From: Auanema rhodensis
Lineage: Eukaryota; Animalia; Nematoda
Direction of reading: 5' to 3'
Length of the DNA: 64,000 nt
Assembly: GCA_964057225.1 (NCBI GenBank)
Contig: OZ059895.1
Span: 12,028,001-12,092,000 of the forward strand
This document shows, piece after piece, positions 2,001 to 63,908 of the stretch (within the stretch, counting starts at the first letter, position 1; each line of letters starts with the position of its first letter). Below the pieces are notes generated by a model. It made no database searches. It was not told the origin of the DNA and saw only the letters and a list, made by a program, of their open reading frames with translations. A program made the position numbers and the translations under genes.

Positions 2001-2339
2001 TGTTCCATACGTGTCTTATAAAGAAGGCGGTTGACAACGTCAACCGACTTTTGGTTAATAGAATTCAATAAGAAACTAGACCTGAACTACTTTTTGTATA
2101 AATTCAATTATATTTGTAATTAATATTTTGCTATATAAACCCCTGAGAAAGCAACTAGGTTGGCTTTCTCATAACATGTAGTTTCATTTATTTGATTATT
2201 GTATTTTGCTTTTATAATTGTATTTCCATATTCTGAATAAACTTCTTTTTCTCTACTCTCTGTTACTTTTACAATGGCATTCACACTATTAAAGTCCATA
2301 TGGTTACCTAGCCGGAACCCTAGGAACCAATATGGAACG
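2001..2339 (+). repeat. 5' LTR of element 1 (TGTTCCATA...TATGGAACG)
   Basis: Direct repeat of 13414-13752; TATATAAA near 2132, AATAAA near 2236. Confidence 0.96.
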
Positions 2340-2358
2340 TGGAGGTTCCACCGAGATT
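2340..2358 (+). promoter_or_regulatory. Primer binding site complementary to tRNA-Gln 3' end
   Basis: TGGAGGTTCCACCGAGATT directly after the LTR is the complement of ...AATCTCGGTGGAACCT-CCA of eukaryotic tRNA-Gln. Confidence 0.88.
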
Positions 2359-3471
2359 CGTCTATAAGGGACGAATCTCTATGGACCATTGCCGCTACTT
2401 TTCTCACCTTTAAATTACTTTCTCTTTCTTTGAAATCCTTTTTACTCTAAAAATTTATCTTGATTTCATATCCAAAAATTCTAATTAAATTTTATATTTC
2501 AAACTTTCAAGTCAATTTTGTATCTAAAACAAAAACTCCAATTTAATCTAGTAATTCGAATTTATCTCTAAATATCATTCTTCTAACATCATTTCTGATA
2601 TATCTATTTGAAAAAAAAAATGTCTTATACATATTATCTATTACAATCTATATTCCTACTTTATTCCTCTACTTTCCTGTATGTTAAAGGCATAGAATGT
2701 ATAAAAAACTCTTTTTGGAACAAGCATATCAAAATATTTAACCACGAATAATATTAAAAACTATCAATTCATGAAATATCTTAAAGACATTTATTCATAT
2801 TGCAACACTTACCCATAAGTCATCTTGAAAACATCTTATCACAAGCTAAATTTTGAAAATATCTATTCATAAATCATTCTGAAAACATTGATTCATAAAC
2901 AAAACCACTATTCTTGATATCTAACGCATTTTTATGAGAAAGCCCCGTAAGAAACAATACCAGACATTCTCGGGACATCGCGCGGAGGCGTACACTTTTT
3001 GATATAAGACGCGCAATCATTTGAAATTAACCCTTTTGGTCCCATATGTGAATTAATGAATATTTTGAAGTTGAGTGGTCCCACCTAGCAAGACCCAGGG
3101 GAACAGAAGTAACGTTAAAAGGGAACGTCTTTTGGGGGTTTGCTTAGGTAAGAGAAGTCTGGAAAAGTGAGTATGAGAAGCCTGTGTACCTGATCTTGTC
3201 CATGACTGAAAAGGAGCAATACACAGACCACTGTCTCATATCTCATGCCTCTTCGAGAGATAAGAACTTGGTCCTTTGCTAAAGGTCACACGTAGTTGCG
3301 GACTCGTGTATGAACCTGACCAGGCTATTCTCCGACTAGAGACCCGCTGCAGGCTGGCCCCCTGACAGGAACAGGAGTCGCGCATACCAACCCCATATTG
3401 TCTCTTACGTTTTGTATAATATAAGCTCAGTCTTCGTTGGTTAATAATTTCCTTCCAGGAAACCAACAAAG

Positions 3472-5119
3472 ATGGCTGACGCAGCGAATCAAAATCCTCC
3501 GCCGGGAAATATTGCCCAAAATGCTACGAATAGCGCAGAGAAAACTCAGACAGTGGAAGCAGCACTGCATAGAAACCAAAGAAAAAATGGACCACCGGAT
3601 GCATTCCGACCAGATGCGAAATATCCGAAAACGAACGCGAAATCAAAGAAATTACCCCCTATTCCGGGTACACCGCTAACTGCTAAGAAACTTTATACTA
3701 CTGCTATTAAAACTACTAGGCATGCAATTAGCTTGAATAAGAATAAAACATCATCCAGTAAATCTACGCCCAAACGCTCTTCTCACTCTCCAAAAACAGT
3801 TGTTAATACCGGCACTAACACTTGTCCTCCAAATCACACTTCTCCTCAACGCCTTGTTCAAACCGCAAATGCGGAAATCCTCACCTCTCCTATTCCTAGA
3901 AACTCTCCCTCTTCCACTGATCAATCTTTGCACGGGCACTCTCTGTCTCCTGTCTCTTCTTCGTCAGACAATAACGTAAATTTGACTTCGAATGTTACAG
4001 AGCAGAGAAGTCGCCCTCAAATGGCAGAGCAGATGGAGCAAGACAACTCTCCTATTGCAAGAGCCCACAACGTTTCTATTCGCCATCACAAACCTACGCT
4101 TTATGATGGATTGGTTCCATTCAACCTCTACATGCAAAGACTAGAAGGATATTTCGATGCCCTTCAAGTCCCTATTGCCGAGAGACTTTCCCATCTCTAT
4201 CTACTTCTCGGAACGGATAGAGCCGCTGAAGCTCTTCGAACTATACCAGCAGAAGACTTACGCCAGGGATGGAACCACGTCAAACGCATACTATCGGAGA
4301 AATTACAACCTCCAGAAAAGAGAGATGCAGCATTCACAAAACTATGCAGCATTCACAAAACTCACTCATTTGAAACAAGGAGAGCACGAAACGGTACAAA
4401 ATTTCGCTCAACGCTGCAGAAACCTTGCCTATGAATCATGCAACATGGACTCGACAGCCGATGAAAGAATACTACGAGTTTCATTCTTAGGAGGACTACG
4501 AAAGACTTTAAGAACACATGTCAATAACCGCAGCCCTATCACCTTTGATGCAGCCGTGACTATTGCCGAAACTGTGGAAACTGACGAGGATCCTTCGCTC
4601 TTGGTCAACAACTTGATTAAAGACGTGGAACAACTAGAGATTAATAATGGTCTCATAAACCACATGAGAGCATCACAACAGGAGAAAATCTATGACGGAT
4701 CACAAACACACCAATCAAGAACATTCTATGGAAATCAATCAAGACCACAACAACCACAAGAGCAATGGAATCAAAGAAGAGGAGGATACCGCTCACCAAG
4801 ATACCAAGAGGATCGACAAAATAACCGTCACAACTTCAGACAGGATAACAGAAACAATGGATATCAACAAGGATACAACAATATCGTAGCCCCCAACGGT
4901 ACGATAGATACAATGATCGATACAACAGCAGAGGAAACGATCGATATGATAGCAGAAGGAATGATCGACAGGAGCACAGAGGAAACGACCGATACAACCG
5001 CGGAAACTGTCCTGATCGCGGATTTCAACAACGAAATCGCAGCACTTCATATGGACCACATAACAGGCACAGAGATCGCACAAGAAGCCCCAGCGTCCGT
5101 TTTCACGTTAACAAAGTAG
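3472..5119 (+). pseudogene. gag: gag (basic Ser/Pro-rich N-terminal extension, capsid, Arg/Gln/Asn-rich NC-like region), frameshifted in this copy
   Basis: ORFs 3472-4434 and 4157-5119 join when one copy of the 19-bp tandem duplication ATGCAGCATTCACAAAACT (~4325-4362) is removed; capsid-like motifs PTLYDG...YMQRLEGYF and LKQGEHETVQNFAQR. Confidence 0.8.
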
Positions 5120-5145
5120 AAAAGGAAACAATCAAAACAAAGAAG

Positions 5146-8034
5146 ACACTTCCGTTCATACCGCTATTCTTATCCGTCATCGCCCTATCTATGATACCTT
5201 GCCAGGCAGACAACACCTATCAACTCTGCATTGGCAAACGAGGAGGTATTTTCCTCGAACCACCTCGCCCAACCACCTGCTCAGACTATGCACACAAGGA
5301 CGGAGTCGAGATAAAAACAGTGGAACTATTCGCAGAAAATATGAATTACAAGGAATGGGAAGCATGGAAATGCGCCAAGGAAATCTATAAAACGTGCGCC
5401 CACGACTTATTCTTCATCAGGGAAAATAACGTTACATTACTCCGAATAGAACCAGCCACTCCACAAGAATGCCAAACAGTCATTCAAGAAAGACGACACA
5501 TGGATAACGACCTCAATCGCGAAGCACCAGGACTATTCAAAGCCCCTATGCCATCTAGTACACAATCAAAATCGTTTTGGGCATCCTCTTGCACAACCAA
5601 GTCAAGATTCACCTTAGAAAGAGGAATGATGACTAGCCTACACGATGACACTATAATCTCCGACTTATTCATCAACACTGAAGGATGTACTAAGCAACAA
5701 GGAGTATGCAACACCACCAACGCAGTTATCACATGGATCCCACCCAATGATCATCGAAATTGCGACTACACGACATTAGGGAAATTCGAAGCACTAATCA
5801 ACAATGATACTGTATTAATCTCGGAAATACAAGGAGCATTCATTCTCAAAAACAACACGCCAGACCCTACAGCTACAAGATGTATGAATACAAGCATCTA
5901 CTCAACTGATAGTGGTACGTACATTTCCATCAAGGACTTAAAAACACACCGACGTCAAAAGAGGATGGCACCCCAAGAATACCCTACGAGATTCTTCAAT
6001 ATCACTATCTACAAATCACTTCGCCTCACAGACAGTTCTACAGGTATACTACCTATGTACCAGACATATCGAAATAGGAAAAGACTGGACAACGCTTATA
6101 ACCTTATGGAATATCTCAAGACATCTAGCGTACACATAGGTTTCATCAAATTCCTACAACTAGATTCATCAAAACTGAAGAACCGACTCTTATGGCACAA
6201 CTACACTGACATCAACATGGTTATCCTGCACACACTTGCAGAAGCTGAGATTCGACTTTCTACGAAAATTGCCATCGAACACCTACTGCCATCAGAGATC
6301 ACGGCAAAACTCAGCAAGCAAATCACTATCAGCGACTTTGCCACACGTCTACTCAACTACGAAGGCGATTATCTCGACCGAGCAAGACAAATAGCAATTG
6401 AAATAGCTCACACACCTACAACTCTGGCAACAGGAGAGACTATTTCATCAATGGAGGACTATCTGTACCAACTGTACGCACCCAGGATGACAAAACTGCC
6501 TAGATCACGCACTGACACACAGTTCTACACCCAGATGGATCAAATACAGGAGTTTCTTGATTATCTAGAGCAAAACAATCGTCTAACTCGGATATCAAAA
6601 GAACAAAGAGAGACAGAAAATAAGAAATGGGCAGATCTCACAAAACAGGCAAATTCGTCAGCAATCGTCTTTCCCAACTATACCCTCATCTTCAACGGAC
6701 ACGCACAAAATTATGGGTTGCCCAAAAATCAACCTACAATCAGACCTATCACGGATGAAGACAGCAAATTATTTCAACAAGCATATCTTCAGCTCATTGA
6801 GTCACCTGGTGCTAGCCCCACAACCACCACTACTACAACCACCACAACCACTACATCGACTACCACAACAACTGCCCCGACAACTACTGCTCATCGGACG
6901 TCTCCACCTCAACCTACAACTACACCAAGGAGATATTATTATTACCAGAGTACAACAACTCCAGTAACTCCACCACCACGTCCTCTCACCACCACACCCC
7001 GCAGGGAATCTACTAGGACACTTCCAACAACTCGGACTACTACAAAGCGAGCAACAACGACCCAACCGATTGAGGAAATCAAATCTCACACTGGATCACA
7101 AGCACACCTCAATTTCCTACGAACACGAGCAGATATCATTCAAAAATACGACGATCAACTTCGTCAACAAGATACAAGGTCCCACCTCCAATACTCTACG
7201 TCAAAACTAGAGGAGGAAATCTTACAATCTTTCCAAATAACAAAGAAAAGCGTATGCAGAATGCAAAATAAGCAGCTACTTACCTGGTGGGCTATCCTGC
7301 AGATTAATCCGACTATAGGAATTCGCACTATGCTTCGTCGACAGGATATTTCAGCAAAGTTTGTTGGAGAACATCTTATTTACGTCATGCCATGCACCCC
7401 TGTAGAAGTAACACGTGTATACTCGGATCACAAACGAGACGATAAATGTTACCTGGAGACACCGGTAGACACGGAACATCACGGAAAACTCTTCATCACA
7501 CCAGGATCAAGAGATTTAACACCATATGCCCACATCATAGCATGCGATATGGCTACATCAGATCCCTACAGAGAAAACAATCAATGGATGAAAGATAATT
7601 CAACATTGAATGTGACTAACTTCTCATTTTCGGATGAACTCACATCTGTAAAAATTGATCACATTAAGTTTAACAATTCCAACATATTTTCAAACCTCAC
7701 GGAGTCAACATTTCCAATGGCACTGGCTATTTCCTACGGCTCTAGCCTAGCATCTTTACAAGCAACTATGCCAGGAAAATTGAAACCAGTCTTCAAACAT
7801 TCTGGACTATCCAATCTGAATCCAATAGGAATTATAGGAGGAACAGTTGGAACGACATTAATGATAGCAGATAACATATCAAACAACGCGGAGAAACAAA
7901 TCACAAATTTCTTTGGATACATAGGAGAATCAATTACAGCATGGATACTAAGGACACTAGCTATTATTGGAGCAATCATCGTCACAATAGGACTCATAAC
8001 TGTTACCATTTGGGCATTAAAAATATATGCATGT
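5146..8034 (+). other. env: Envelope glycoprotein region (signal peptide, rhabdovirus G / herpesvirus gB-like ectodomain, furin site, mucin stretch, TM)
   Basis: Hydrophobic LPFIPLFLSVIALSMIPCQA; WKC..IYKTC...P.TPQEC; RRQKR at 5950-5964; Thr-rich 6817-7065; VCRMQNKQL...INPT...ISAKFVG...PCTPV...CY..PV; TM 7939-8034. Confidence 0.82.
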
Positions 8035-11000
8035 ACCACAAGGATACCAATCAATCAAATCACATTCAACGAACAAGACGAAGAACCAAGAGGAGAGGAC
8101 AAACAATTCGAATTAAAACCACTAGTCACTTCTCAGCAAGAGAAATTATATACAAGAACCTCTCGATATGATCCTGACGCCCCACTATCAGATAATGACT
8201 TTTTCGCCTATCTACCACGGTACGCTATGAAAGAATCAAGGATTAACTACATCGGAGGATCACGACTACCTTTCGTACCTCTCTCCATTCACAATCAGAT
8301 CTTTACTGCTTTATGGGACACAGGAGCTTCTATATCATACATGAAGGAAAGTACATTTCAACAACTACCGGCAGCAACAATGGTTATGGAAAAGACAACA
8401 GCCATTGTAGCAAACAAATCACGATTTTCTTTCCTGGGCTACACAAGAATCCCAATTATTATCGGAAAGACAGAAATCGAGCACAAAGTACTGATTTCTG
8501 CCAACAACCACTGCCCAGCACCAATATTATTAGGAATAGACTTCATAGAAGCTCTCAACAAAATAGGAATAAATACATCTTTACGACCACTACAAAATTC
8601 ACTACTAATTGGAGACACAATAGTACCTTTAGCACAAGACTACGCGCCATGGACTGAGAACCACACGATAGCACACGTCGTAAGCCTGGAAACCAAACAG
8701 TTCTACCCAGGAGAAACCAGATCGCTTACATTGGAAGTAGACGATCCCGCCTCTTACGAACAAGCTTTCATTAGAAGCTCACAGCGGACAGGAAAAATGA
8801 GTTTCGCCCCTACTACTTTCACCCCAACGGGATATGGAGTTCAGATATTTGCTACAAATATCTCTCCAGACACAATTGTAGTACAGACAAATCAAGGCAT
8901 TGGAACAGCTTACGCTATCCCGAAAAACACGGAGGAGCAAAAAGGACAATATGTGCCACCAGAAGCAAGATGGGAAGATCAACTACCATACTTCCCAGAG
9001 GACTTTATAAAAGACCTCGATGTAACAAACACCATCTTTACTCAGCTAGAGAGACAACAGTTAAAGAAAATAGTGCTCAGAAACAAGGAAGCTTTCTTAA
9101 ACGAGGATCGCAATATTGGACTTTTCAAAGGACCAGTGGAACATAGCATCCCGATCATCGAAGGAAAAGTTCCATCTTTCAAGATCACGTACAGAATACC
9201 TCTATCACAACAAGAAGAAGTAGAAAAACAAGTGGAGGAAATGTTAGAACAAGGAATAATTGAGCCATCTTTCTCTATGACTACCAGTCCCGTAATATTG
9301 GTCAAGAAAAAGGATAAAACGTACAGATTTGTGACTGATTTTCGAGCACTCAACGCAATAACGCAAAAACAAATCTACGTTATATCTAACATTCAAGACA
9401 TCTTGGACCTAGCAGCCGGAGCGCGTATTTTCAGTAACTTTGATCTAGTATCTGGATTCTTTCAAATCCCTCTTAGATCAGAAGATAGACACCTCACCGC
9501 ATTCACTACTACGAGCGGAACTTATCAATACTGCAGAATGCCGATGGGACTCTGCGGAGCTCCACACACATTCCAAAATGCTGTACGATATTTACAACAA
9601 CACGTACGATGCAAGCTCTTCGTCTATCTCGACGATCTACTTCTCATATCGGAATCAACGACGAAACATTCACAAGATATCGACGAAGTACTGAACGCAT
9701 CAGCAGAGCTAGGATTAAAAATCAAGCTTAAGAAATGTACCTTTGGACAACAAGAAGTCAAATTCCTAGGATTCATTGTTGGACACGAAGGAATAAAACC
9801 AGACCCTCAGAAAGTAAAAGCAATCCAAGATTATCCAAGACCGAAATCAATAACAGGAGTTCGAGCATTTATGGGAGTTGTGAACTACTTTCGCAGATTT
9901 ATTAGAAATGCCGCAGGCATTGCGTCACCACTTTATGAGCTCACGAAAAAGGATACAGCTTTCAAATGGGGAGATGCAGAAGAACAAGCATTTCAACAAC
10001 TTAAACAGATACTCTGTCAAGCTCCTGTACTACAAGCACCTATAGCAAAACGACCTTACGTCATTGAAAGCGATGGAAGTATAATTGCAGTTGGCGCAGT
10101 ACTATTACAGGCTAAAGACGACAAGGAACCACTTCACCCAATTGCATTTGCCAGCCGAAAACTGAACAAAGCCGAACGGAATTACCCGCCAATTGAAATC
10201 GAAGCCCTAGCACTCACTTTCGCAGTACATCAATTTCGGACTTACATACTAGGCACACCAATAAGAATCATTACCGATCACAGGCCTCTTACTAGCCTCA
10301 TGACAAGAAAAGATCTCATTGGCAGGCTAGCAAAATTTCAAATCGTATTACAAGAATACGACATCGAGATAGTGTATCGCCCAGGACGTCTTAACAGCGT
10401 CTGTGATGCACTTTCACGATATTTTGAAGACGAAGTCAACGAAGCCAAGGAAAGAAAGAAGAAACCAAAAGAAACTCCTACACACAAAATCTCGACTATT
10501 TCAACTATTACGGACCTTCGGACCATTCAAGGCAATACAGAATGGATCATGGAAACAAAAGAAAAGATTCGGAACAAAACAGCAGGAAGGCAACTAATGG
10601 ATCGATATATCGTTGTGAACGACGCTCTGTATGCAAAACCCAAAACAGCTTTACAAACTCCGCGAGCCATTCTACCAAACGATCCAGCAATCACAATACC
10701 AATTATAGAAAAATTTCATAAGGACCCAATTCTCGGAGCGCATCTAGGAATCAATAAGACGCAAGACTCCATTTTGCGACGGTACACTTGGACAGGAATA
10801 CAGGATGATATCACAAGATATGTGAACAGATGTCTCGGATGTGCAAAGAGGAAAAATAACCCACATGAAGCCACAGTTGAACCAATGAGAAACTTCCCAA
10901 CAGTGACACATCCATGGGAACGAGTTCACATGGACATACTTGGACCACTAACTCGGACCGCAAATGATAAAAGATACATTTTATCAATACAAGACGCTTT

Positions 11001-12330
11001 TTCAAAATGGATCATAGCGATACCGCTCATTCGTCAAACATCAGAAGAAATAGTATCAGCTATTATGACACACTTATTCTATGTCTTCGGACCCCCAAAG
11101 AAAATCATCACAGACAATGGATCAAACTTTGTCTCACACGAATTCAAAAACATGTGTGATGATCTTGGATCGGAACATCACACAACTATGCCATACTACA
11201 AAAACGCAAATGGTCAAGTGGAACGGCTACACAGAACACTGGAAGAAGCATTAACTTCCTACGTTAATGACGATCAAGACAATTGGGATATCATTCTACC
11301 AAAAATTGTTTTTACGATGAATCGACTACCAAACGCTACTACTCGCACACCACCCTACGACTGTCTGTTTGGACAAACAGCTCGGTTACCAATAGATAAG
11401 GACTTAGAAACTCCAGGAGCCACAATCAAGAACGCCCCGGACTTACACGAGAAGATTCATGAAAGGATAGAGTTGAATAATGAAAGAATGAAGAAGAAAT
11501 ACGACGAAAATCACAGGACGCAGGAAAGAGAGATCTTCGTGGAAAATAGAGCACTCGTCAAGCGAGCAAAGCCAGCAAATAAATTACAAACAACAAGCGA
11601 TGGACCATATATAATCAAGGAAATAAAAGGAAATAACGTAATATTAGCAGATAGCGAAGGGAATACGATTATAGCTCACAAGAATAATATAAGATACTTT
11701 CCACCCGACGATAACAACGTCGAAGAAAGCGAGCACAACAGAAACGACTCCGCACCTGCCATTTATAGCGACGGCTCACAGCAGGATACGGAAAATACGC
11801 GCGCTAAAAATAGCACGCCCACCGCAACATCAATCTCTGATTCAGAAAGCGACAACGAGGACGAATTCTACGAACAAAGCCGACCTTCAATAACACCACA
11901 AGAAACAATAGCACCACAGGAAATTACGCGGGAAACACAACAGGACAATTATCAACCAGAAACCGGACCGAATACGGCAGACAAGTCAGCTACGGACAAG
12001 GACGAAAACAACTTATTTCAACAACTTGTCGATAAAATTGGAGAAGAAACAAGGCAAGAGCTCTATGAAGAAAGACGTAAAGAGATACCCACAACCAAAA
12101 GATGGAGCTCAGCCCTCAAGTTGGCACTTGGAATAGAAGACAAAAATCCTATAACCGCTCCAAAACCATTCCACGTACCAATAAGGTACAACAGCGTGAT
12201 ACCCACCTTAGAGTCTAAAAACAGGCTCACACGCTCTCAGATACCGGATGCTCATTTCAATTCTCCAAAAACACCGGTTGTACGAAAGAAACGACCTTCA
12301 ACAGTGATTGGAGCAACAACAACCATTTAA
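5191..12330 (+). CDS. pol: Env-Pol polyprotein: class III-like glycoprotein, TM, protease, RT, RNase H, integrase, C-terminal tail (frame is open from 4825)
   Basis: LWDTGAS (~8311), YLDD (~9625), ESDGS RNase H, H-H-C-C zinc finger, HMD / TDNGSNF / VERLHR integrase, GPY motif; Cys-rich N-terminal ectodomain with furin site and TM. Confidence 0.95.
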   Translation: MIPCQADNTYQLCIGKRGGIFLEPPRPTTCSDYAHKDGVEIKTVELFAENMNYKEWEAWKCAKEIYKTCAHDLFFIRENNVTLLRIEPATPQECQTVIQERRHMDNDLNREAPGLFKAPMPSSTQSKSFWASSCTTKSRFTLERGMMTSLHDDTIISDLFINTEGCTKQQGVCNTTNAVITWIPPNDHRNCDYTTLGKFEALINNDTVLISEIQGAFILKNNTPDPTATRCMNTSIYSTDSGTYISIKDLKTHRRQKRMAPQEYPTRFFNITIYKSLRLTDSSTGILPMYQTYRNRKRLDNAYNLMEYLKTSSVHIGFIKFLQLDSSKLKNRLLWHNYTDINMVILHTLAEAEIRLSTKIAIEHLLPSEITAKLSKQITISDFATRLLNYEGDYLDRARQIAIEIAHTPTTLATGETISSMEDYLYQLYAPRMTKLPRSRTDTQFYTQMDQIQEFLDYLEQNNRLTRISKEQRETENKKWADLTKQANSSAIVFPNYTLIFNGHAQNYGLPKNQPTIRPITDEDSKLFQQAYLQLIESPGASPTTTTTTTTTTTTSTTTTTAPTTTAHRTSPPQPTTTPRRYYYYQSTTTPVTPPPRPLTTTPRRESTRTLPTTRTTTKRATTTQPIEEIKSHTGSQAHLNFLRTRADIIQKYDDQLRQQDTRSHLQYSTSKLEEEILQSFQITKKSVCRMQNKQLLTWWAILQINPTIGIRTMLRRQDISAKFVGEHLIYVMPCTPVEVTRVYSDHKRDDKCYLETPVDTEHHGKLFITPGSRDLTPYAHIIACDMATSDPYRENNQWMKDNSTLNVTNFSFSDELTSVKIDHIKFNNSNIFSNLTESTFPMALAISYGSSLASLQATMPGKLKPVFKHSGLSNLNPIGIIGGTVGTTLMIADNISNNAEKQITNFFGYIGESITAWILRTLAIIGAIIVTIGLITVTIWALKIYACTTRIPINQITFNEQDEEPRGEDKQFELKPLVTSQQEKLYTRTSRYDPDAPLSDNDFFAYLPRYAMKESRINYIGGSRLPFVPLSIHNQIFTALWDTGASISYMKESTFQQLPAATMVMEKTTAIVANKSRFSFLGYTRIPIIIGKTEIEHKVLISANNHCPAPILLGIDFIEALNKIGINTSLRPLQNSLLIGDTIVPLAQDYAPWTENHTIAHVVSLETKQFYPGETRSLTLEVDDPASYEQAFIRSSQRTGKMSFAPTTFTPTGYGVQIFATNISPDTIVVQTNQGIGTAYAIPKNTEEQKGQYVPPEARWEDQLPYFPEDFIKDLDVTNTIFTQLERQQLKKIVLRNKEAFLNEDRNIGLFKGPVEHSIPIIEGKVPSFKITYRIPLSQQEEVEKQVEEMLEQGIIEPSFSMTTSPVILVKKKDKTYRFVTDFRALNAITQKQIYVISNIQDILDLAAGARIFSNFDLVSGFFQIPLRSEDRHLTAFTTTSGTYQYCRMPMGLCGAPHTFQNAVRYLQQHVRCKLFVYLDDLLLISESTTKHSQDIDEVLNASAELGLKIKLKKCTFGQQEVKFLGFIVGHEGIKPDPQKVKAIQDYPRPKSITGVRAFMGVVNYFRRFIRNAAGIASPLYELTKKDTAFKWGDAEEQAFQQLKQILCQAPVLQAPIAKRPYVIESDGSIIAVGAVLLQAKDDKEPLHPIAFASRKLNKAERNYPPIEIEALALTFAVHQFRTYILGTPIRIITDHRPLTSLMTRKDLIGRLAKFQIVLQEYDIEIVYRPGRLNSVCDALSRYFEDEVNEAKERKKKPKETPTHKISTISTITDLRTIQGNTEWIMETKEKIRNKTAGRQLMDRYIVVNDALYAKPKTALQTPRAILPNDPAITIPIIEKFHKDPILGAHLGINKTQDSILRRYTWTGIQDDITRYVNRCLGCAKRKNNPHEATVEPMRNFPTVTHPWERVHMDILGPLTRTANDKRYILSIQDAFSKWIIAIPLIRQTSEEIVSAIMTHLFYVFGPPKKIITDNGSNFVSHEFKNMCDDLGSEHHTTMPYYKNANGQVERLHRTLEEALTSYVNDDQDNWDIILPKIVFTMNRLPNATTRTPPYDCLFGQTARLPIDKDLETPGATIKNAPDLHEKIHERIELNNERMKKKYDENHRTQEREIFVENRALVKRAKPANKLQTTSDGPYIIKEIKGNNVILADSEGNTIIAHKNNIRYFPPDDNNVEESEHNRNDSAPAIYSDGSQQDTENTRAKNSTPTATSISDSESDNEDEFYEQSRPSITPQETIAPQEITRETQQDNYQPETGPNTADKSATDKDENNLFQQLVDKIGEETRQELYEERRKEIPTTKRWSSALKLALGIEDKNPITAPKPFHVPIRYNSVIPTLESKNRLTRSQIPDAHFNSPKTPVVRKKRPSTVIGATTTI

Positions 12331-12555
12331 TCAAAAATAGAAACTTTTTTTTGGGAAAATAACTTTATTCATTAATTTTTTTTTTTATTAATTTATAATA
12401 ATTCATTCTATCTGCTACCCAAACAACAAAAACAATGTTTTCCCCAATCATCAATCTTAATATCTATGTATCACAAAATATATACTTACCTATTTTTTTC
12501 ACCCTATATAAGCTCAAAATTCACCTCAAGCAGAAAAACTCCCAGCACCACAAGA

Positions 12556-13191
12556 ATGGCACTCGTCTTCCCTCCACCAGCCTGCGAGACACCTATCGCG
12601 ATGATCAAGGAAAAGTGGATCAAGATTCATTCGCTCCAGATAGAACTACAACAACTGGAGACAACAAACAACAGGACTAAAAAGATAAGAATTCTCCAAT
12701 CATTTTCGGAGAATTTAGCCAGAGTTACTCTATTAATAGAGACTCTGGAAAGGTTACAATGTTCATGTAACAATGATGAAGAAGAGATGGCCAAAATGGC
12801 GCAAAACTGGTCCGAGGCCACTGCCCGCACCAAGGCCACCATCAACAAACTACGCGAAGATCTAGGCTATCCAGCCTCCGAAAATGTAGCTAGCGCGGAT
12901 CTCATCCCAAGATGGGCCGCGGAAGAGATCCACAAGAGCTGGACAGAAGAAAGTATGATGGAATCGACTAACCAGTCGATTAGGAAGGCGGGAGACCTGA
13001 TCAGCCAGGCCTTAAGGATACTAATGGCGACGCGCGCCACCACTCCGGACCAGAAAAGAAAGAAAATGATGATAGCAGGCCAGGCGACGGAACTGCTGAC
13101 AGACGTCAGCCTGTTCCACATATGGACGGTCGCCGACCGGCAACCCGCGACCGACTTCCAGCTGGGACAAATCGAGGAGGAAGAAGGATAA
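12556..13191 (+). CDS. Accessory ORF of element 1, ~211 aa predicted helical protein of unknown function (frame open from 12466)
   Basis: Intact ORF between pol and the 3' LTR; aligns along its length with 20500-21102 of element 2. Confidence 0.85.
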   Translation: MALVFPPPACETPIAMIKEKWIKIHSLQIELQQLETTNNRTKKIRILQSFSENLARVTLLIETLERLQCSCNNDEEEMAKMAQNWSEATARTKATINKLREDLGYPASENVASADLIPRWAAEEIHKSWTEESMMESTNQSIRKAGDLISQALRILMATRATTPDQKRKKMMIAGQATELLTDVSLFHIWTVADRQPATDFQLGQIEEEEG

Positions 13192-13413
13192 CAGCTGCAC
13201 GAGGTGAATTCATAGTTTTTCTTTTCTTCTCTTTTCTTTTCTTTTCTTTTTATATTGTTTTCATTTTTTTAATATTATTCCTATTACACTATTATTCCTA
13301 TTCTAGTATTCTAATTCTAATTCATTTATATATATATTTTTCTCTTTTGTTTCTTTTCCTTAAAAGGTCTAATTTCTTATAGCTGAGGTCAGCTACTTTT
13401 TCAATATAAGGCA

Positions 13414-13752
13414 TGTTCCATACGTGTCTTATAAAGAAGGCGGTTGACAACGTCAACCGACTTTTGGTTAATAGAATTCAATAAGAAACTAGACCTGAAC
13501 TACTTTTTGTATAAATTCAATTATATTTGTAATTAATATTTTGCTATATAAACCCCTGAGAAAGCAACTAGGTTGGCTTTCTCATAACATGTAGTTTCAT
13601 TTATTTGATTATTGTATTTTGCTTTTATAATTGTATTTCCATATTCTGAATAAACTTCTTTTTCTCTACTCTCTGTTACTTTTACAATGGCATTCACACT
13701 ATTAAAGTCCATATGGTTACCTAGCCGGAACCCTAGGAACCAATATGGAACG
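13414..13752 (+). repeat. 3' LTR of element 1
   Basis: Direct repeat of 2001-2339. Confidence 0.96.
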
Positions 13753-19883: not shown

Positions 19884-20296
19884 CGTTCCATGGTGGTTCC
19901 CCAGGGTTCCGGCTGGGTAACCACATGGAATTACTTTCTTTTCTTCCAAATATAAATGATAAAGAGTATAGAGAGAAAGGTTTATTCATGATAAAGTATA
20001 CAAATTACAATAATAAAAGTTACATAATGATTCCTAGTCGCAGCCCAAAGGACTCGTAAGGAAACCTTATATAGTTTTCCTTACGAGCATAAAAAGTGGT
20101 TATATCAGGTCTGCGGAACTTGGTTCCGCTTGAATTGGGCTTTCTTTAATTAAACTTAATATGAAAAAGTGTTCGTTCATTATTGCATTGAATTCCTGTT
20201 TCTCAAATGTAGCGTCAGCTATTTGTTTTTATAATGTTCCGTTTTATAAGCGATTGACGTTGTCAATCGCTCTACTTATAGGACACGTATGGAACA
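19884..20296 (-). repeat. 3' LTR of element 2
   Basis: Direct repeat of 23637-24049; reads TG...CG on the minus strand. Confidence 0.95.
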
Positions 20297-20499
20297 TGCC
20301 TAATATCGAAAAAGTAGCTGACCTCAGCTACATCGAGAAAGTGAAATTCCATGCAAATGTGAAAGTTGTATGAAATGTTTCAAAAAATAAAAGAATACTG
20401 ATAATACAGAACAATTTTATGAGAAAAAATAAAAGGAAAACAATGTAATTACAAAATAATATATCATATATCATACTGGGAATCTTTCAAAAGTTCTTT

Positions 20500-21102
20500 T
20501 TAGTCTTCTTCATAATACTGGTATATCTCTGGTAATGGTGATGATCCTAGGTCGTGGAGAAGATCCATAGTCTTGTTGCATAAATCCGTTTTTCTTTCCA
20601 TTTCTTCCTTGGTGGTTGCTGGTGATGCCAGAAATATTTGTAGAGCATTTATAATGCTTTTTCTTGCCTCTGTGGATGGCAGTTCGCTGCAATGTTGCAG
20701 GCTCCATTCTTGATAGGCCGAATGGGTCTCGGCAATAATCCAGTTTGGTGTCTGCTGTACTGGTGAATCGCAACTAGGTGAATAACCTAGTTGGTCCCTT
20801 AGTTCAGCAATGGCATCTCGGATGACTCCTGCTATGTTGGTCCATGGTCCTATGCAGTGGTCAACCTCCGACAGTTGATCCTTGTCGTATTGGTAACATA
20901 GGATTTTGAGCGTTTCAGTACTGGTGTTCGCTCTTGTTAGTCCTTGAACTAACTCCTTCAGGATCTTCTCTTTTCTGGGGCGGTTGGCGATGGTATTGGC
21001 GCCTAGCTGCTTCAATTCTCTTACTAATAGTTGAATTGAAAGCCATCTCTTTTTGGCCATCATGAGGGGAATTTCGACGGCTTCAGGAAGTTGGGTGGAC
21101 AT
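20500..21102 (-). CDS. Accessory ORF of element 2, 200 aa, homologue of 12556-13191
   Basis: EIPLMMAKKRW vs ETPIAMIKEKW; LRDQLGY vs LREDLGY; PNWIIAETH vs PRWAAEEIH; ALQIFLASPATT vs ALRILMATRATT. Confidence 0.87.
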   Translation of the reverse strand: MSTQLPEAVEIPLMMAKKRWLSIQLLVRELKQLGANTIANRPRKEKILKELVQGLTRANTSTETLKILCYQYDKDQLSEVDHCIGPWTNIAGVIRDAIAELRDQLGYSPSCDSPVQQTPNWIIAETHSAYQEWSLQHCSELPSTEARKSIINALQIFLASPATTKEEMERKTDLCNKTMDLLHDLGSSPLPEIYQYYEED

Positions 21103-21472
21103 TGTTTTCTTTGTTACTGTTTTCTGTCCTTTTATCCTTTTAAAACTAGGTCGGTCTGTTCCTTCCTTTTTGTCGCCTCCTTTTTGATCAGTTAGGTGAA
21201 AAAGTGATGAAGATTGGTAATTAAAACTTTGCAGTGATTTTTGAAAGATTCCAAGTATGATGTATAATTTTATTTTGAAATTTTTGTTATTAATACAATA
21301 TTGTTATGAGAGTGAAAAAAATAAAAATGTACAATAATTTGTGTAGAATTTTATGTATTACTTAAATGAGAAGAAAAAAAAAATATATGTTCAAGTTTAG
21401 ATGAAAATTATGAAAATTATGAAAATGGTATTATACTTTTTGTGATTTTTATATAGAAATTATGGATTTTTA

Positions 21473-22210
21473 CTATTGTTCTAGCTTCTTACTTGTAGTC
21501 CCAATAACTGTTGACGGTCTTTTCTTATGGATGACTGGTACTGTTGGTGCCACGAAGTTTGGGTCCGGGATCTGACTCTTCGAAACTCTCTTCTTCGGCT
21601 CTGTTACTGGTATGGTGCTGTAATACCTTATCGGCACATGATAAGGTTTTGCTGGCGTTGTAGGGGAATTATCTTCTAATCCCAATGCCAATTTAAGTGC
21701 TGAACTCCATTTCTTAATTGTGGGTGGCTCCTTCTTCCGTTCCTCATATAATTCTTTTCTTGCGTTTTCTTCTATTTTCTCTGATAGTTTGGTGAATTTC
21801 GAGGAAGAGGAGAAGAAAGAATAGCAGTATTTGGGTATGAAAATGATATTTGAGAATAATCTTTACAAGGGGAAGTATTTGTGCTAACATAGGTAGAGCT
21901 TTTGATAACGTTAGAATTGCGTTTAGGAGTTTGTTTGTTAATAGACGTTTTAATTTTACTAAGAGTAATAGCGTGGCGAGAAGTTTTGATAGCTGTTGTG
22001 CCTATTTTTTTTCGCGGGGGTACCCGGTATAGCGGGTGGTTTCTTTGCAGCAGTAGGTCGGCGCTTCGTGTCCGGCTCATAAACATTTGGAGGTCCTCTC
22101 TTTCTTTGATTCTGCTCGAGTACTGGCTCGACGTGCGTATCATTACGGGGGGCTGCGCTCTGTGGATTTGTTTTATCCTGCGGAGGATTTTAACTCTTCG
22201 AGTCCGTCAT
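21473..22210 (-). pseudogene. Fused remnants of the polyprotein: N-terminal gag extension joined to the C-terminal ~105 aa of pol
   Basis: MTDSKS*NPP...NQRKRGPP...IPGTP (stop at codon 7, then a frameshift), TTAIKTSRHAI...SPLPRNSP, junction near 21795, then ELYEERKKE..WSSALKLALG...KKRPSTVIG. Confidence 0.85.
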
Positions 22211-23617
22211 CTTATTGGTTTTCCTGGAAAGGAAATTATTATACCAACGATGCGAATCTTATAAAAATATATATACAACGTGAGAGGCAATATGGGGTTG
22301 TATGCGTGACGCTTGCTAGGGGGCCAGCCTGCAGCGAATCTTCTAACGGAGAATTGCTCAATCGGGTACATACACGGGCCTGTGACCGGTGCGCCCTTTC
22401 TAGGATCAAGTTCCCATCTCTCGAATAGGCGTGAAATATACGACGGTGATCTAAGCAGTATTCCCTTTCAGTCTTTCGACAAGATTAGGTGCTCAGGCCT
22501 CGTACATTCACTTTTCCAGACTTCTCTTGCCTATGAAAAATCACAGAAATCGCTCCCTTAACGAAATTCTGCTCCCCTGATTTTTCATGGTGAGACCACT
22601 CTAACACTTTCATTCTCGACTAATTCTGTCGTAATTTTCAAATTTGCAAAAATAGGACCAAAAAGGGATCTTCAAAATCAGGAATGCGTACGTCTTATAT
22701 CAAAAATAGTGGTTGCCTCCGCTCAGTTCTCGAGACAGTCTGGTATTGCTTCTCACGGGCTACTTTTAGGATCAAAATGCAAAATTATAAATCTTAGTTT
22801 CGGGATTCAGATAAAAAAAATTTCAAAATTATTTGACTGTTTTCTGGGTTATATTAGGAAGAAGAGAAAAAATAATAGTAATAAGAGAGAGAAAAAGAAA
22901 AAATTTAAAAGAAGATAAAAGAAAAATAAAATAGGAATATAGTAGGAATATAGTAGGAATATAGTACTAGTATAGAATAGTTTTGTACATAAATATATAT
23001 ATATATATATATATAAAAGAGTAATACATTTTAAAGGATAGAATAGAAATTAATGAATTTTAATATATATAAAACAATGAATTTTGTGATGATTCATGAA
23101 AGAAATTAATTCATTTTTGATTCAAAAATTGTTTGAAACTTTATAACAAAAGTTTATGAGAGATAGAATAGATTTTGATTAAAAAAAAAACAGAAAAAGA
23201 AAAGATTGACAGAAAAAAAATATCGAAATACCTTTCTTTAAATGAATAAATATAAAAGAATTTCAAATTAATTTATGATAGTTATAAACAAAGTTTTTCC
23301 TCAAAAAAATGAATGAAAGATCTTAGAATATGGATAAAAATCGAAATGTTTCTTTTAAATGAATGAATATAAAATTTCAAAATTAAGTTGTTTCAAAATA
23401 TATCTTTTTAAATAAATGTATATAAGATTTCAGTATTAATTTATGAATCAAAATCAAAATAAAGTTCTTTGAATGAATGAAATAAAGAAGAGAAAGGTTT
23501 CAAATTAAATTCATATAGCATAATCGAAATATAATTCTTTAATTAGATGTATGAAAGACAACAAAATTAAATTTATGTAGCGAAATATGGTTCTTAGAGA
23601 TTCGTCGGTTATAGACG

Positions 23618-23636
23618 AATCTCGGCGGAACCTCCA
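23618..23636 (-). promoter_or_regulatory. tRNA-Gln primer binding site of element 2
   Basis: TGGAGGTTCCGCCGAGATT on the minus strand, adjacent to the 5' LTR. Confidence 0.85.
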
Positions 23637-24049
23637 CGTTCCATGGTGGTTCCCCAGGGTTCCGGCTGGGTAACCACATGGAATTATTTTCTTTTCTTCC
23701 AAATATAAATGATAAAGAGTATAGAGAGAAAGGTTTATTCATGATAAAGTATACAAATTACAATAATAAAAGTTACATAATGATTCCTAGTCGCAGCCCA
23801 AAGGACTCGTAAGGAAACCTTATATAGTTTTCCTTACGAGCATAAAAAGTGGTTATATCAGGTCTGCGGAACTTGGTTCCGCTTGAATTGGGCTTTCTTT
23901 AATTAAACTTAATATGAAAAAGTGTTCGTTCATTATTGCATTGAATTCCTGTTTCTCAAATGTAGCGTCAGCTATTTGTTTTTATAATGTTCCGTTTTAT
24001 AAGCGATTGACGTTGTCAATCGCTCTACTTATAGGACACGTATGGAACA
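23637..24049 (-). repeat. 5' LTR of element 2
   Basis: Direct repeat of 19884-20296. Confidence 0.95.
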
Positions 24050-50239: not shown

Positions 50240-53200
50240 GGCCAAAGCTCTTTGACATGTCGCGCTATGACATGTTGTGTACATGACATAGTAAAATTGA
50301 AAAAGGCGTTATGACATGGGTTTATTTTGGTCTTCGTTATCTTAACGACATACCCTTTTTTGACATTGTCGTCTACTTGACATGTATATTCAAATTATTC
50401 TAGAAGTTTCTCTGGAATTTTTGAAGTTTTTGCTTTATCTACTAAATTATGTAAAACTGTTTTTATTTGTGGGATTAAGTTGAACAATGTCATTTGAAGA
50501 GCAAAATAATATAAGCTGTCAGACAAGTTAAGTAAAGTGCATCAAACATGTAATTTATACTAAATATTCTTAATAATTGAAACTGGGGGGAAACCAGAAA
50601 ATAGAAGAATCGTTGTTTTGTATCGATCTCGATATTGTTTCAAATTGTGGTGCTGAAGATTCTCTTTCTTCGACGTCTGTTGATTCATCTGAAGAATGGT
50701 GTTGATCGCTAAACAAGATTTCTGGAAAATCATCGTCTTCTTCTGGTTCTTCGTCTTCTTTTTCATTTTGACAAATTCCATCTTCAACTTCTCTATTTTT
50801 TTTTTCTTTGGCAACATAGTTGATAAGAACAACATCGTCATCTCCGCTCTCTTCGTTCGATGTAAGATTTTCCGTAGAATTCAAAAACGATATTCTAAAA
50901 TATTAAATAATCATAGTTTTGAATTCAAACTCAACTCTGTCTGTGCTATTTTCCTGGTATGATTTCCTTTTGAGAATTGGCGTCCTTTTCGTTTTTGATA
51001 TTTAGACCCATCACTGGATTTTATCTGTTTACTAAGATAATTTTGAGCTGTTCTATTATTTTTTCTTGCTTCCATTTCTCTTATAAGTTGATCAGATGTT
51101 GAAGAATTGAGAGTACGCAATACAGCAAACCTTTAAGTGTTGATGTGTCTAAATTTGTTTTGTTGAACTAACGAATGAATACAAAAATAGTAGCTATAGT
51201 TGATTGATGCTAAGCAGTCTTTATGGAAGCATTTGAATTGGTATTCCGTTTGTTTTACACACACTGGTCTTAAAAAATGAATTCGAATCATATTCGCAAC
51301 AAGGTATTCATACTTTCTCAAATCATTTTCATTCAAAATGAAAAACAAGTTCTTGTTATTCATGCATATATTTACATGAAGTGTCTCGGACGCTTCTAAA
51401 AAAACAGTACAGTTCACACTACCGTCACCTAGAATATTAAATTTTACAAAACTTTGTATATTTCCTAAAAAATACCTTCTATAGTCCAACGGGGAAAAGA
51501 CAAAAAATTCAAGGAAATAAAATAGTGTTGAAGCCCAAATGACTCCATGTATTGCTTCTGTTCGTCTCTTGTCATATTATCGAAAACAAATTCCACTGGT
51601 TTCAGAACTTTTAAGTGCTGACTAGTGTTTCTAATAGCAAAAATTCGTTCGTCCATGTCTTCTATTGAGATTTAGAAACATATAAATGTTAATTTGGTTA
51701 ACTCACGTTGATGAACAATCAACGAATTTTTCAGTAAGAGTTCCGCAGGTTGAGGATACAAAATTATTTTCTTTAATTGATTATTGCGCATTTCGATTAT
51801 ATTAGTGGTCGCCCATTGCAATGGACAACCAGCACTGAGCTTCTTCATCAATGAACACCTTTTGTAAAGCTCATGCGAATTTTTTAGTAGCCTAAATTTG
51901 AACAAGAAATGTTTACAGCATCAAACATGGCTTACCAATTACAAGTAATAGGGTGAAGTTCATCAGTTAACTTCAAAAGTTTTTTATCGAAATCTGATTT
52001 ATGCAAACATCCTAGAATTCCTGTATGCCAAATAACACCGGTGATATTCTGAACAAAAATTAATTTTTTGAGAATAGAAAACAACGAACTTCTTCTTTCC
52101 ATCCGAATAATTTTCTTTTAATAAATTCAGCGTTTTCGCGATCACTTTTATGCATATTTGTTTTTAAGTTTTCAAATTTATGAATATCACACCTAAGTGC
52201 AATTGATTTACCAAGAAATGATCCCTGAAGTTAAAAGTTAAAGCAATAATTTTGTGAATCTAACCGTGTTATACTGTTTGAGAGATTCTTCTCCATCTGT
52301 GATAATGCATGGCAGAACTTTGTTTTGTCCAAAACGTTCGAATTGATAATTCAACGCTGACGAAAAAGCTTCATGCTCAGCCGATGTTTTGAAAGTATGA
52401 ATCATGATCCCTAATAAAATGCTGGCACATTTTTCAGACGCCTTATTACTAAATAAAAACCTTCGATGAAATAACTTTTAGACTCACACAAAAACATCAT
52501 GTATTCCTATAACCATAGTCAAATATTCAGCGCTGCTAACACTAAATGTCGTATCCACTTGAATCATTGAACCCTGTTTAGGAATTAAGCCTGACCTATT
52601 AGTTGTTGAGATTAATTTATCTGAAACTATTGCTTTTTACAAATTATCGATTTGCCAAACTTAGTTCAATTTCTGCTTCTTCTTTCTCAAAACTTAAAAG
52701 CTTTTCAATATTTTTTCTATGAACCTCCACAGTTTTTGTTTCCGGTAGCGATGAACAAAAATGTTCTAACGCATGCGGATAGAAAACTATCTGTCTTATA
52801 GACACTCTACCATCATCTGAAGCATAGTTATTGAAAAATTTATAATCAATTAAACAACCTAAATTTTGTACATGAGGCGCTAACATTAGTTCCAGCGAGC
52901 TAGGCTTGCAAATAAACCTATCAAGGAGTTTAGCAATATTAGTGGCAGTTTTCTTTCCAACTCCTGATTTTACATGGGTTTCAACGTTACGTGAAATATT
53001 AACAAGCTTGAGATAAATAAATAAAAAGTAAAACCGGGATAATTAAAAACTTTTTTCGAAGCTATATTCAATCTTTGTTCCTCTAAATTTCGTTTAGCTC
53101 CTGAAGTTGTTCTGTGCTTCAATGCTTCCCTAGCTGCTAAAACTTCCGAAGGTTTTAGTCGTTTCGATTCATTTATTTCGACAGTGAGATTTTCCTGCAG

Positions 53201-54013
53201 AGAAGATAAAAAGCTGATAAACATAATTCAATGAAACAACTTCAGTAAAATAATCATATAAAATTGGTGTTACAACATTCTCATTTTCATCTAAAATATA
53301 GCAAACCTGTAAATCAATTTTGTATTAACCAAAGATGCAAACTATACTTACTTTCCGATGAAGAGAAGGGTATCTGGGATTAATGTTCAAAAAAATTTTT
53401 AGAACAAACATTGAATCTACAACTTTACACCATTTATCATCAAAATTTTCAACGCAAATACTAGATTTATTTGTTTTTAAAAAACGTAACTGTCCACCGT
53501 TTCCTAAAATGAGCATAAGTACGCATTCTACTGTTGAGTTCACACCTATTTTCCCTGTCCAAGGTGAGAAATGATCTGTAGTTGCGTCCCTGAGTAATTT
53601 AAAATTTTTTGAGTGAACTAAAAATACAGTGTTTCCAGCTAAGAAACGATTAAAACGAGGAAGTTCGTCATATACTTCCATATCACTAAATTACTTGAAT
53701 AACAGAAAAAAAACTAGAACTTACGTATCATTGAAATAGTGTAGGAGCGATATATTGGTGGAAGGCTTCATCACGAAAACTTAATCTTATTGAACTTGAA
53801 TTTAACAAAAAATAAAACAGAAAAAAAGTTTAGTAATAATTGAACAAAACATAATGAGCAAGAAAATATTTAAAAAATGGAATACGTGCCAAAACTGTAA
53901 TTTCAAATGATGATCGAGATGATCAAAAGAAGACCATGTCGAAACAACTTTTTCAATTTAAACATGTCAAGGAGACCATATGTCAAAGTTCCTCATGTCA
54001 TTCAGATTTCGCC
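50240..54013 (-). mobile_element. Mutator-like (MULE) DNA transposon inserted in a 5S gene
   Basis: 9-bp TSD CGTTGAAAG (50231-50239 / 54014-54022); imperfect TIRs GGCCAAAGCTCTTTGACATG vs GGCGAAATCTGAATGACATG (15/20); subterminal TGACAT repeats. Confidence 0.88.
50570..53771 (-). CDS. Multi-exon MULE DDE transposase with SWIM-like zinc finger and acidic tail (exon boundaries only partly resolved)
   Basis: Minus-strand motifs VDTTF (~52550), IITDGE (~52297), LRCDIH CxxH (~52187), TTNIIEMRNN (~51800), C-x4-C...C-x-H (~51200); first intron 53724-53686 joins ATG 53771 in frame to ORF 53325-53681. Confidence 0.75.
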
Positions 54014-54116: not shown

Positions 54117-54471
54117 TTTCAAATTTTTCTAACGATCATGCCACGTTGAAAGAACGCCATGCAGCTGATTTTCAATTTTATCTCTTCCGTAACAAATGTT
54201 TTCAATTTTCCAGCAGTTTTACTTAGATAGCTCAACTCAAGGCATCAAAATATCTTCAATCTTATTTCTTTATTACAGTTAAAAACCTGTAGTTTATGAA
54301 CCTTCATCTTAACTTCACTGTTTCTATCTATTTCCTATTAAAACAAACGTTGTTTAAATACTATACAACTGTGAAACCTTTTTTACTTTATTGTATTTGG
54401 AGCTCATAAGATTCAATATCATCGAGGGATTTAGATGTAACGTGGAAAATTACATAACTAACATGAAATTG

Positions 54472-54733
54472 TGTGGCGTTATACCGCAAGTGTATAGTAT
54501 GGTTGGAAATAAAACACAAAGCGAATATGTAGAAAAGGGTTTATTGATGAATTAACAAGACAAGCACGGAATAGAATCACTGACTGCGAACGTTAAAAAT
54601 GTAAGACTGTCCTCCGTTGTTGGGCGGTCGTCTGAAATAAACTGTTACTTATGCCACATGTTAACACATATGTTATGCATATGTGTTTTGATCTAGTTAC
54701 AAAGGAAGGAGATAAAGAGAGATAGAGATAGAT

Positions 54734-54784
<51 letters not shown>

Positions 54785-54785
54785 T

Positions 54786-54826
<41 letters not shown>

Positions 54827-54908
54827 GATAGAGATAGAGAGAGGTATATATATATATAGAGAGAGAGATAGAGATAACAAAAACAAAACCTACTCGCTTA
54901 TCGCGACA
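54472..54908 (-). repeat. 3' LTR of the BEL/Pao element (437 bp, contains a GA microsatellite)
   Basis: Matches 63909-64000; preceded on the minus strand by CCGGGAG then TGT. Confidence 0.88.
54712..54875. repeat. (GA)n / GAGATA microsatellite inside the LTR
   Basis: Seen directly. Confidence 0.9.
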
Positions 54909-54930
54909 CTCCCGGCAAGAGTGTAAAGAC

Positions 54931-55425: not shown

Positions 55426-55699
55426 CTTATATACTGGTTGACGTCTATATGTGTCTATTACGTCATTCAGAGATTAATATGATATCCTTCTGTTTTTGAT
55501 ATTATCCATTAAACGTCTGTTAACGAGTTATTATGTAATTCAATACTACAGATTAGATATCTTAAGTAAAACTAGCAGATTCGTGTTACTTTATTATTTC
55601 AGAAATTAATCCCTTCTCTTCTCTCCTTGGTTTATTTTATTTATGTGAATTTTAGTTTATACTTTGCTTTTGTTTATTCTACCTTTTATATCTTCTTTA

Positions 55700-63631: not shown

Positions 63632-63890
63632 TTTTGTCGTAGATGTAGGAATAATGCTTATATTCTTTTTACTTTCTCTTTTTTTTTGTTTGTTTGGTGA
63701 TCACAGTATATGTGATAGTGAATCTCTGTTTCTGTCTGCAGAGTTTGCTTATGGTTCAAGTCTTTTTGGTGTGACTTGACGTGGACTAATGGTTGCCACG
63801 ATTTCTATTAAGTATGTTTTTTGCTCAAACACGCTTGGTTTGAGCTGTATCTCACCTGCCACGCGGGACTTGAAGCGGCTAAGATCTGAA

Positions 63891-63905: not shown

Positions 63906-63908
63906 ATT

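Follow-up and report, generated by a model that had tools for sequence, protein, structure and literature searches.

A young Ty3/gypsy element of Auanema rhodensis with a predicted gB-like class III fusogen between Gag and Pol

What kind of retroelement places a membrane fusogen between its Gag and its enzymes, and would the whole be made as a single polyprotein? This question is raised by a 64,000-nt stretch of the nematode Auanema rhodensis (GenBank assembly GCA_964057225.1, contig OZ059895.1, forward-strand positions 12,028,001 to 12,092,000; hereafter the window), for which an initial annotation, made from the letters alone, had proposed a Ty3/gypsy element of gag-env-pol order. The analysis presented here makes it very probable that the window holds a young Ty3/gypsy long terminal repeat (LTR) element in which a predicted class III fusogen resembling herpesvirus glycoprotein B (gB) precedes protease (PR), reverse transcriptase (RT), RNase H (RH) and integrase (IN), and whose family likely makes one membrane-spanning Gag-Env-Pol polyprotein. 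The LTR element spans 11.75 kb (2001-13752) and is inserted within a 5S ribosomal DNA (rDNA) array. The full element is larger than the extent proposed at first, 3472..12330, and includes both LTRs and an extra open reading frame (ORF) downstream of pol (Table 1).

The enzymatic part agrees with the proposed Ty3/gypsy assignment. The Pol domains follow the order PR-RT-RH-IN, as in Ty3/gypsy, and no match to Peptidase_A17 or DUF1759 was found in the element with Pfam. The best solved relative of the RT-RNase H region is the RT of Ty3 (E-value 2.6e-78), ahead of the next enzyme (3.6e-43) and of the first Gag-Pol entry, which ranks below (6e-38). In a 30-row RT tree, from which rows with fewer than 190 aligned RT residues were excluded and which holds no named gypsy reference, the element groups with 100/100 support with an Auanema protein (75% identical to it over RT-RH), a C. 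japonica protein and the relative P0018, apart from eight BEL/Pao rows that form a separate 100/100 clade.

Upstream of the enzymes, the long frame had been described as opening with an Arg/Asp-rich tail and a hydrophobic signal, followed by an ectodomain, a transmembrane (TM) helix and PR-RT-RH-IN, and all of these are present in that order, with an ectodomain of ~910 aa. The description of this ectodomain as ~900 aa long and Cys-rich is accurate in length, but the cysteines are not spread throughout: 10 of the 14 lie in the first 225 aa and four in aa 683-779, with none between. Each of the 14 is conserved in 75-98% of the covering rows of a 100-row Env alignment. Relatives were collected with an HMMER search of 1.84 billion representatives, which gave 252 Env relatives, the best 150 of which were used; a word-index search with 5087 candidates found no stand-alone Env. 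A four-sequence full-length alignment was not used for the Env N-part, where it is misaligned. The C-part matches PF24664 (Monjiviricetes_fusion, E 7.8e-18, over the cut-off) and PF00606 (Glycoprotein_B, E 6e-7, under the cut-off), and positions 222-564 of an Env profile built from 100 relatives match herpesvirus gB with a best E of 1.1e-14, in line with the gB likeness proposed for this part. Positions 102-234 of the same profile match four chains of 399-505 aa that are named only 'Glycoprotein' (E 3e-6 to 5e-6); these are presumably rhabdovirus G entries, and the rhabdovirus G likeness proposed for the N-part is supported to that extent.

The fold was predicted with a monomer model generated from a 100-row alignment, which replaces a single-sequence AlphaFold model with a predicted local distance difference test (pLDDT) value of 35.6. 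Its mean pLDDT is 64.8; the N- and C-parts mostly reach 75-98 per block, with confident stretches at aa 1-240 and 631-800, and the insert between them is modelled poorly. A class III fold had been set beforehand as the test of the fusogen proposal, and the model indeed aligns to prefusion Epstein-Barr virus (EBV) gB with Z 13.8 and a root-mean-square deviation of 5.6 over 361 residues (model range 1-814), the next 18 structural matches all being prefusion or primed herpesvirus gB. Foldseek concurs, as its listed PDB matches are all herpesvirus gB (best E 8e-12). The best BFVD matches are rhabdo-like, nyavirus (rank 2), orinovirus and herpesvirus glycoproteins (best E 1.5e-18). Rhabdovirus G lies outside the best 50 VIA structural matches, which does not exclude a likeness. 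The insert varies among relatives, the distance between the N- and C-part matches ranging from 14 to 527 aa in 93 of them. A furin-like R-x-[KR]-R motif is found in 15 of 22 long-insert versus 16 of 47 short-insert relatives, and a Ser/Thr-rich run in 10 of 22 versus 1 of 47. No usable Atlas match was obtained for the insert, the best score of 0.85 being a lead only.

The proposal that relatives share this order was also confirmed. Env precedes Pol within one protein in 44 of 153 relatives and follows it in one, with no gypsy-Pol match in the remaining 108; 15 of the 153 combine a BEL/Pao-like Pol with a C-terminal Env. Seven of ten relatives that were looked up are named nematode proteins, with Caenorhabditis, Auanema and Aphelenchoides among the names. 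All 30 proteins that have both Env and PR carry a TM helix between the two, mostly 70-115 aa ahead of the catalytic Asp, and a signal-like segment lies ahead of Env in 47 of the 57 proteins with 200 or more aa upstream, a set of 57 that includes eight BEL-like ones. These positions are consistent with the predicted topology of cytosolic Gag, luminal Env and cytosolic Pol. In addition, the long frame has four occurrences of the motif (I/V)N-x-(I/V/L): one 12 aa ahead of the signal, one within Env, one directly behind the TM helix and one directly ahead of PR. Ahead of PR it is found in 12 of the 30 proteins and ahead of the signal in 20 of the 57, compared with 243 of 6281 background 25-aa windows, and it is likely the cleavage site of the element's own protease. 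The two gypsy loci returned by a metagenome scan are distant, at 31% and 45% identity, and have no env match. In the C. nigoni relative P0012, Pfam gives two stretches each of protease and integrase zinc finger, a possible internal duplication.

The claim of a single Gag-Env-Pol polyprotein holds for the stretch from the Gag tail through IN, which is continuous in the window copy, but not for the main part of Gag, which lies there in other frames. This Gag is spread over frames 3448-4434, 4145-5119 and 4849 onward, with frameshifts at ~4320-4360 and ~4850-4900. A profile built from the Gag of 16 relatives matches aa 224-303 of frame 3448 at profile positions 12-89 (E 1.6e-6) and aa 60-199 of frame 4145 at profile positions 72-199 (E 3.1e-17). 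The match of the first piece is independent; that of the second is not, because 6 of the 16 source relatives had first been found via BLAST with this very piece. Since the profile matches on both sides of the first break, this frameshift splits the capsid domain. The second piece matches by BLAST the Gag regions of relatives P0014, P0004 and P0011, which carry Ty3_capsid or Retrotrans_gag, and PF19259 or PF03732 is present in P0004, P0011, P0014 and P0039. Neither Gag piece of the window copy has a direct Pfam match, and a comparison of the Gag piece with PDB sequences gave nothing significant. Contigs from four runs in three studies cover the gag region at high depth, and their length differs from the window in three of the four runs at the first break (X1 has no cover there) and in all four at the second. 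The breaks are read as private to the window copy or to its assembly, and the window copy is probably not autonomous, unless the frameshifts are assembly errors.

Table 1. Features of the element and of a deleted relative in the window (nt positions; aa positions refer to the long frame).
Feature	Position	Strand	Basis or remark
5' LTR	2001..2339	+	TG...CG termini; one copy of the 4-bp target-site duplication directly upstream
Primer-binding site (PBS), tRNA-Gln	2340..2351	+	12 nt directly after the 5' LTR
Gag N-part: Ser/Pro-rich leader and first capsid half (~4117-4356)	3472..4356	+	stops at first frameshift
Gag middle: second capsid half (~4322-4741) and Gln/Arg-rich stretch	4322..4890	+	stops at second frameshift
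Uninterrupted frame, 2493 aa	4849..12330	+	Gag Arg/Asp-rich tail, signal, Env, TM, PR, RT, RNase H, IN, acidic tail
Internal signal-like hydrophobic segment LPFIPLFLSVIALSMIPCQA	5149..5208	+	Kyte-Doolittle peak 1.98 over 19 aa
Env N-part: predicted fusion-domain and PH-like beta region of class III fusogen, 10 conserved Cys	5209..5950	+	pLDDT, profile, Cys
Predicted furin site RQKR	5953..5964	+	motif
Lineage-specific Env insert, ~380 aa: helical part, then Thr/Pro-rich mucin-like stalk (~6817-7068)	5965..7095	+	low pLDDT
Env C-part: predicted long central helix and gB domain III-IV-V-like region, 4 conserved Cys	7096..7941	+	PF24664, PF00606, gB matches
TM helix, then ~100-aa predicted cytosolic tail	7942..8022	+	hydropathy peak 2.5 at nt 7954
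Aspartic protease (DTG), aa 1141-1236	8269..8556	+	PF00077, PF13975
Reverse transcriptase (YLDD), aa 1485-1644, and RNase H, aa 1707-1837	9301..10359	+	PF00078, PF17917, PF17919
Integrase zinc finger and core, aa 1951-2117	10699..11199	+	PF17921, PF00665
ORF-X, 211-aa orphan accessory ORF between pol and 3' LTR	12556..13191	+	open reading frame
3' LTR	13414..13752	+	followed by 4-bp duplication; ~90 nt upstream of 5S gene
Internally deleted relative: gag start joined to Pol tail, open ORF-X homologue, no env or RT	19884..24049	-	sequence comparison

The initial annotation had considered this layout undescribed, which cannot be upheld, as GAG-ENV-POL with a gB-type ENV has already been published for nematodes. 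According to Chary & Hayashi (eLife 2026, PMC13524379), errantiviruses of Nematoda, Bryozoa and Platyhelminthes have only ENV of the HSV/gB type (HSV, herpes simplex virus), in the order GAG-ENV-POL; their ectodomain is bounded by a signal or TM and by a TM, with a variable furin site, and Sacco et al. 2022 are credited with the flipped ENV/POL order in nematode endogenous retroviruses (ERVs). Supplement 1 of the same paper tabulates 36 nematode elements, all ENV_HSV, 8 of them with a Gln PBS. The element of the window is probably a further member of this group. Like the published nematode elements, it has a Ty3/gypsy Pol, a gB-type Env between gag and pol, signal and TM flanks and a furin site. 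Its LTR-to-LTR span is similar to that of the nematode rows with LTRs (~8-13 kb), its Cys spacing matches by eye one Nematoda_C1 row, and its tRNA-Gln PBS is shared as a type with the eight Gln elements and as an identical 12-mer with two, the Gln_UUG_CUG PBS of Clat_errantivirus_4 and Ctro_errantivirus_1. Unlike the published elements, the window copy has two gag frameshifts. In the main text of PMC13524379 none of 'polyprotein', 'single ORF', 'fused' and 'rDNA' occurs, so that an in-frame fusion or a 5S location is not named under these terms, and no mention of an accessory ORF was noticed in its accessible portions. With the headline layout already published, little discovery value is left, yet the element remains a good, young example in which env and pol are intact.

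A comparison with other env-bearing systems places the element further. The general statement that errantivirus env is baculovirus F-like is true for part of the group only, since F-type and gB-type env are equally abundant (PMC13524379, abstract), and mosquito BEL/Pao elements carry a gB-like or chuvirus-like Env (Dezordi 2020 as cited in PMC13524379). In classical insect errantiviruses the env is F-type and lies 3' of pol, whereas here it is gB-type and lies 5' of pol. Herpesvirus gB and mononegaviral G have a common fold and Cys framework with the element's Env at 8-17% identity; unlike them, this Env has a ~380-aa insert with a mucin-like stalk and is embedded in a retroelement polyprotein. 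Tas is a nematode BEL/Pao element with a gB-like Env. Such BEL/Pao elements have the same Env family, as in the 15 BEL-like relatives, but carry Env C-terminal to Pol. The nematode ERVs of Sacco et al. 2022 reportedly have a continuous gag-env-pro-pol ORF, a nyamivirus glycoprotein-like Env and, in some members, an extra small hypothetical ORF. Measured against that definition, the window copy has a frame that is continuous from the Gag tail to IN, with two gag frameshifts, and the frame is continuous in relatives; a nyavirus glycoprotein is the second BFVD match of Env, and ORF-X, also a small ORF, may be its counterpart.

For intact members of the family, the following series of steps is proposed. 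Gag would be made in the cytosol, after which the internal signal would thread Env into the endoplasmic reticulum (ER) and signal peptidase would cut behind the signal. The TM helix would then halt transfer, leaving PR-RT-RH-IN back in the cytosol on an Env tail of ~100 aa. Furin likely cleaves the Env insert, while (I/V)N-x-(I/V/L) sites are where the element's own protease would likely cut Gag loose from the stub of the signal and detach Pol from the Env tail. Capsids would likely bud where Env trimers gather in the membrane, with Pol delivered at the same time. Fusion of the particle with an adjacent cell, probably of the germ line, would then be the task of Env, and reverse transcription would be primed by tRNA-Gln. 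As signal peptidase would separate Gag from Env-Pol and no Gag-Pol fusion would survive, we infer from this arrangement that Pol would reach the budding capsids tethered to the Env tail, to be released by the protease. After the signal peptidase cut, the layout would thus leave Pol only two routes to the capsid, in trans or attached to the Env tail, which sets it apart from retroviruses and ordinary gypsy elements.

Several points weigh against the main reading. In the Env model, 378 of 942 residues have a pLDDT below 50, the predicted template modelling score (pTM) is 0.49 and global TM-scores are low (0.14-0.24 by query length), the latter because of the insert. Signals and TM helices were assigned from hydropathy alone, numerous relatives are gene models from eukaryotes, in which frameshifts could have been bridged, and the RT tree holds none of the sequences of PMC13524379 besides having no named gypsy reference. 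The cleavage motif was defined post hoc from the window and P0001-P0003, among rows that are related, and is missing before PR in 18 of the 30 proteins. Between the window and the majority contigs, the 15 env differences look near-neutral (5 synonymous, 10 not). On the supporting side, the listed differences of a minority sibling point to purifying selection: 10 of 11 env differences are synonymous, as are 28 of 36 pol differences and all 3 in ORF-X, with 23% expected; the listings cover the best-supported rows, with 32 and 51 further rows beyond. Such a pattern leaves room for an Env that is kept for a non-infectious role, anchoring Pol and scaffolding assembly at ER membranes while the element moves only inside the cell: loss of Env would reshape the polyprotein, so purifying selection need not mean fusion, and PMC13524379 describes the way in which gB-type errantiviruses enter as unknown. 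This alternative is nonetheless judged unlikely, given that the class III fold, both hydrophobic loop regions and the 14 Cys are kept in very distant relatives and that the BEL/Pao relatives keep Env at the C-terminus, where it anchors nothing.

The same anatomy could also be expressed in another way, with Gag made separately and Env-Pol obtained through programmed frameshifting or splicing, in which case the gag breaks would be regulatory and the proteins would not arise 1:1:1. That the first break falls within the capsid domain speaks against it, as do the lack of a canonical slippery heptamer in the 4849-5119 overlap, the contigs from three studies whose lengths depart from that of the window at the two breaks, and relatives P0002, P0004, P0011 and P0039, which have a Pfam Gag domain and Env within one protein. 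Even though Gag and Env-Pol do lie in different frames in the window copy, the identical LTRs mark the element as young and retroelements usually make an excess of Gag, programmed frameshifting was rejected as the main explanation on these grounds and is considered very improbable. Finally, a gypsy copy might have captured a viral or BEL/Pao glycoprotein gene once, or the assembly might be chimeric. The occurrence of the same Env family at the C-terminus of BEL/Pao polyproteins, and of a BEL/Pao element in the same window, would suit such an event, but the Env of that neighbouring element is a phlebovirus-type class II protein (PF07245). Capture and chimeric assembly are refuted by independent contigs that bridge gag-env (X6 4763-5097, X1 5074-6044) and env-PR (X2 6938-8952) and by the 44 relatives with the same order, which leaves them almost no probability.

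The LTR ends and the 4-bp target duplication were set by comparison with empty units, the empty site being present in 28 other array units, and the 5' and 3' LTRs are 100% identical across the 340 nt matched, so that the insertion is recent. Hallmarks of Metaviridae are present, namely two LTRs, a target-site duplication and a tRNA PBS, with termini of TG...CG instead of TG...CA. The LTR 3' ends (2339, 13752) read CG in place of the usual CA, and the same is seen in the deleted relative; a loose end in run X2 has the same LTR end joined to position 11794. Loose ends in other samples also reveal internally deleted copies, joining 4961 to 12921 (X2) and 7412 to 8909 (X6). Contig depth, which is not copy number, is higher at 3300-4960 (gag) than at 5200-8400 (env) in X2, X6 and X7, and X2 has a join from 4961 into ORF-X; there may be env-less gag copies. 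From each of two presumed-RNA runs came two contigs close to the 3' end, short and of low depth, which are evidence neither way.

ORF-X has no match in Pfam (only a weak KIX_2, E 0.05), the protein database, Atlas or the stored proteins. It is 30% identical over 182 aa (E 8e-21) to an ORF at 20500-21303 on the minus strand, within the deleted relative. This relative has 413-nt LTRs with one mismatch, a tRNA-Gln-type PBS, a 4-bp duplication and the same LTR ends as the main element, and is likely a non-autonomous derivative of a sister family.

Most of the window is a 5S rDNA tandem array, with 11 Rfam 5S matches in the first 20 kb and 71 5S BLAST matches in all, 23 of which are 33-nt remnants in shorter units. 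In the array (1-49800), units of 529/531 nt with a complete 5S gene occur together with 399-nt units in which only the 33-nt 5S match is present. Three LTR elements lie 55-91 nt upstream of a 5S start (window positions 13753, 24050 and 54470): the main element at -91 to -87, the deleted relative, which has the opposite orientation, at about -59 to -55, and a BEL/Pao element at about -59. Three uniformly distributed points would lie within 36 nt of a unit of 399-529 nt with a probability of 1.4-2.4%, a post hoc figure with n=3. Because the unrelated BEL element uses the same site, an open-chromatin hot spot explains the clustering as well as targeting does. If it were true targeting, the element would be an animal, env-bearing parallel to yeast Ty3, which is known for Pol III targeting. 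A bolder and rather doubtful hypothesis combines Pol packaged through the Env tail and not as Gag-Pol, insertion targeted to the zone of Pol III factors that lies 55-91 nt upstream of 5S genes, and a conserved orphan helical ORF-X kept by deleted copies. If correct, the fusogen would be obligatory even for reverse transcription, and the element would represent an enveloped, 5S-targeting animal retroelement with flavivirus-like processing. No description of 5S targeting or of an Env-tethered Pol was found in the open literature, including the accessible portions of PMC10946416, a weak negative given that subscription papers fall outside this scope.

Two further insertions lie in the window. The BEL/Pao element (54470-64000, minus strand) encodes an open 2666-aa polyprotein with a class II Env at its end that is phlebovirus G2-like (PF07245, E 3.6e-41), and has a 180-aa Cys/His-rich ORF at 54931-55473; it appears to resemble Atlas-type nematode elements. 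At lower coordinates, an insertion of ~3.8 kb (50240-54013) with short inverted ends and broken ORFs splits a 5S gene ~25 nt past its start and is possibly a DNA transposon.

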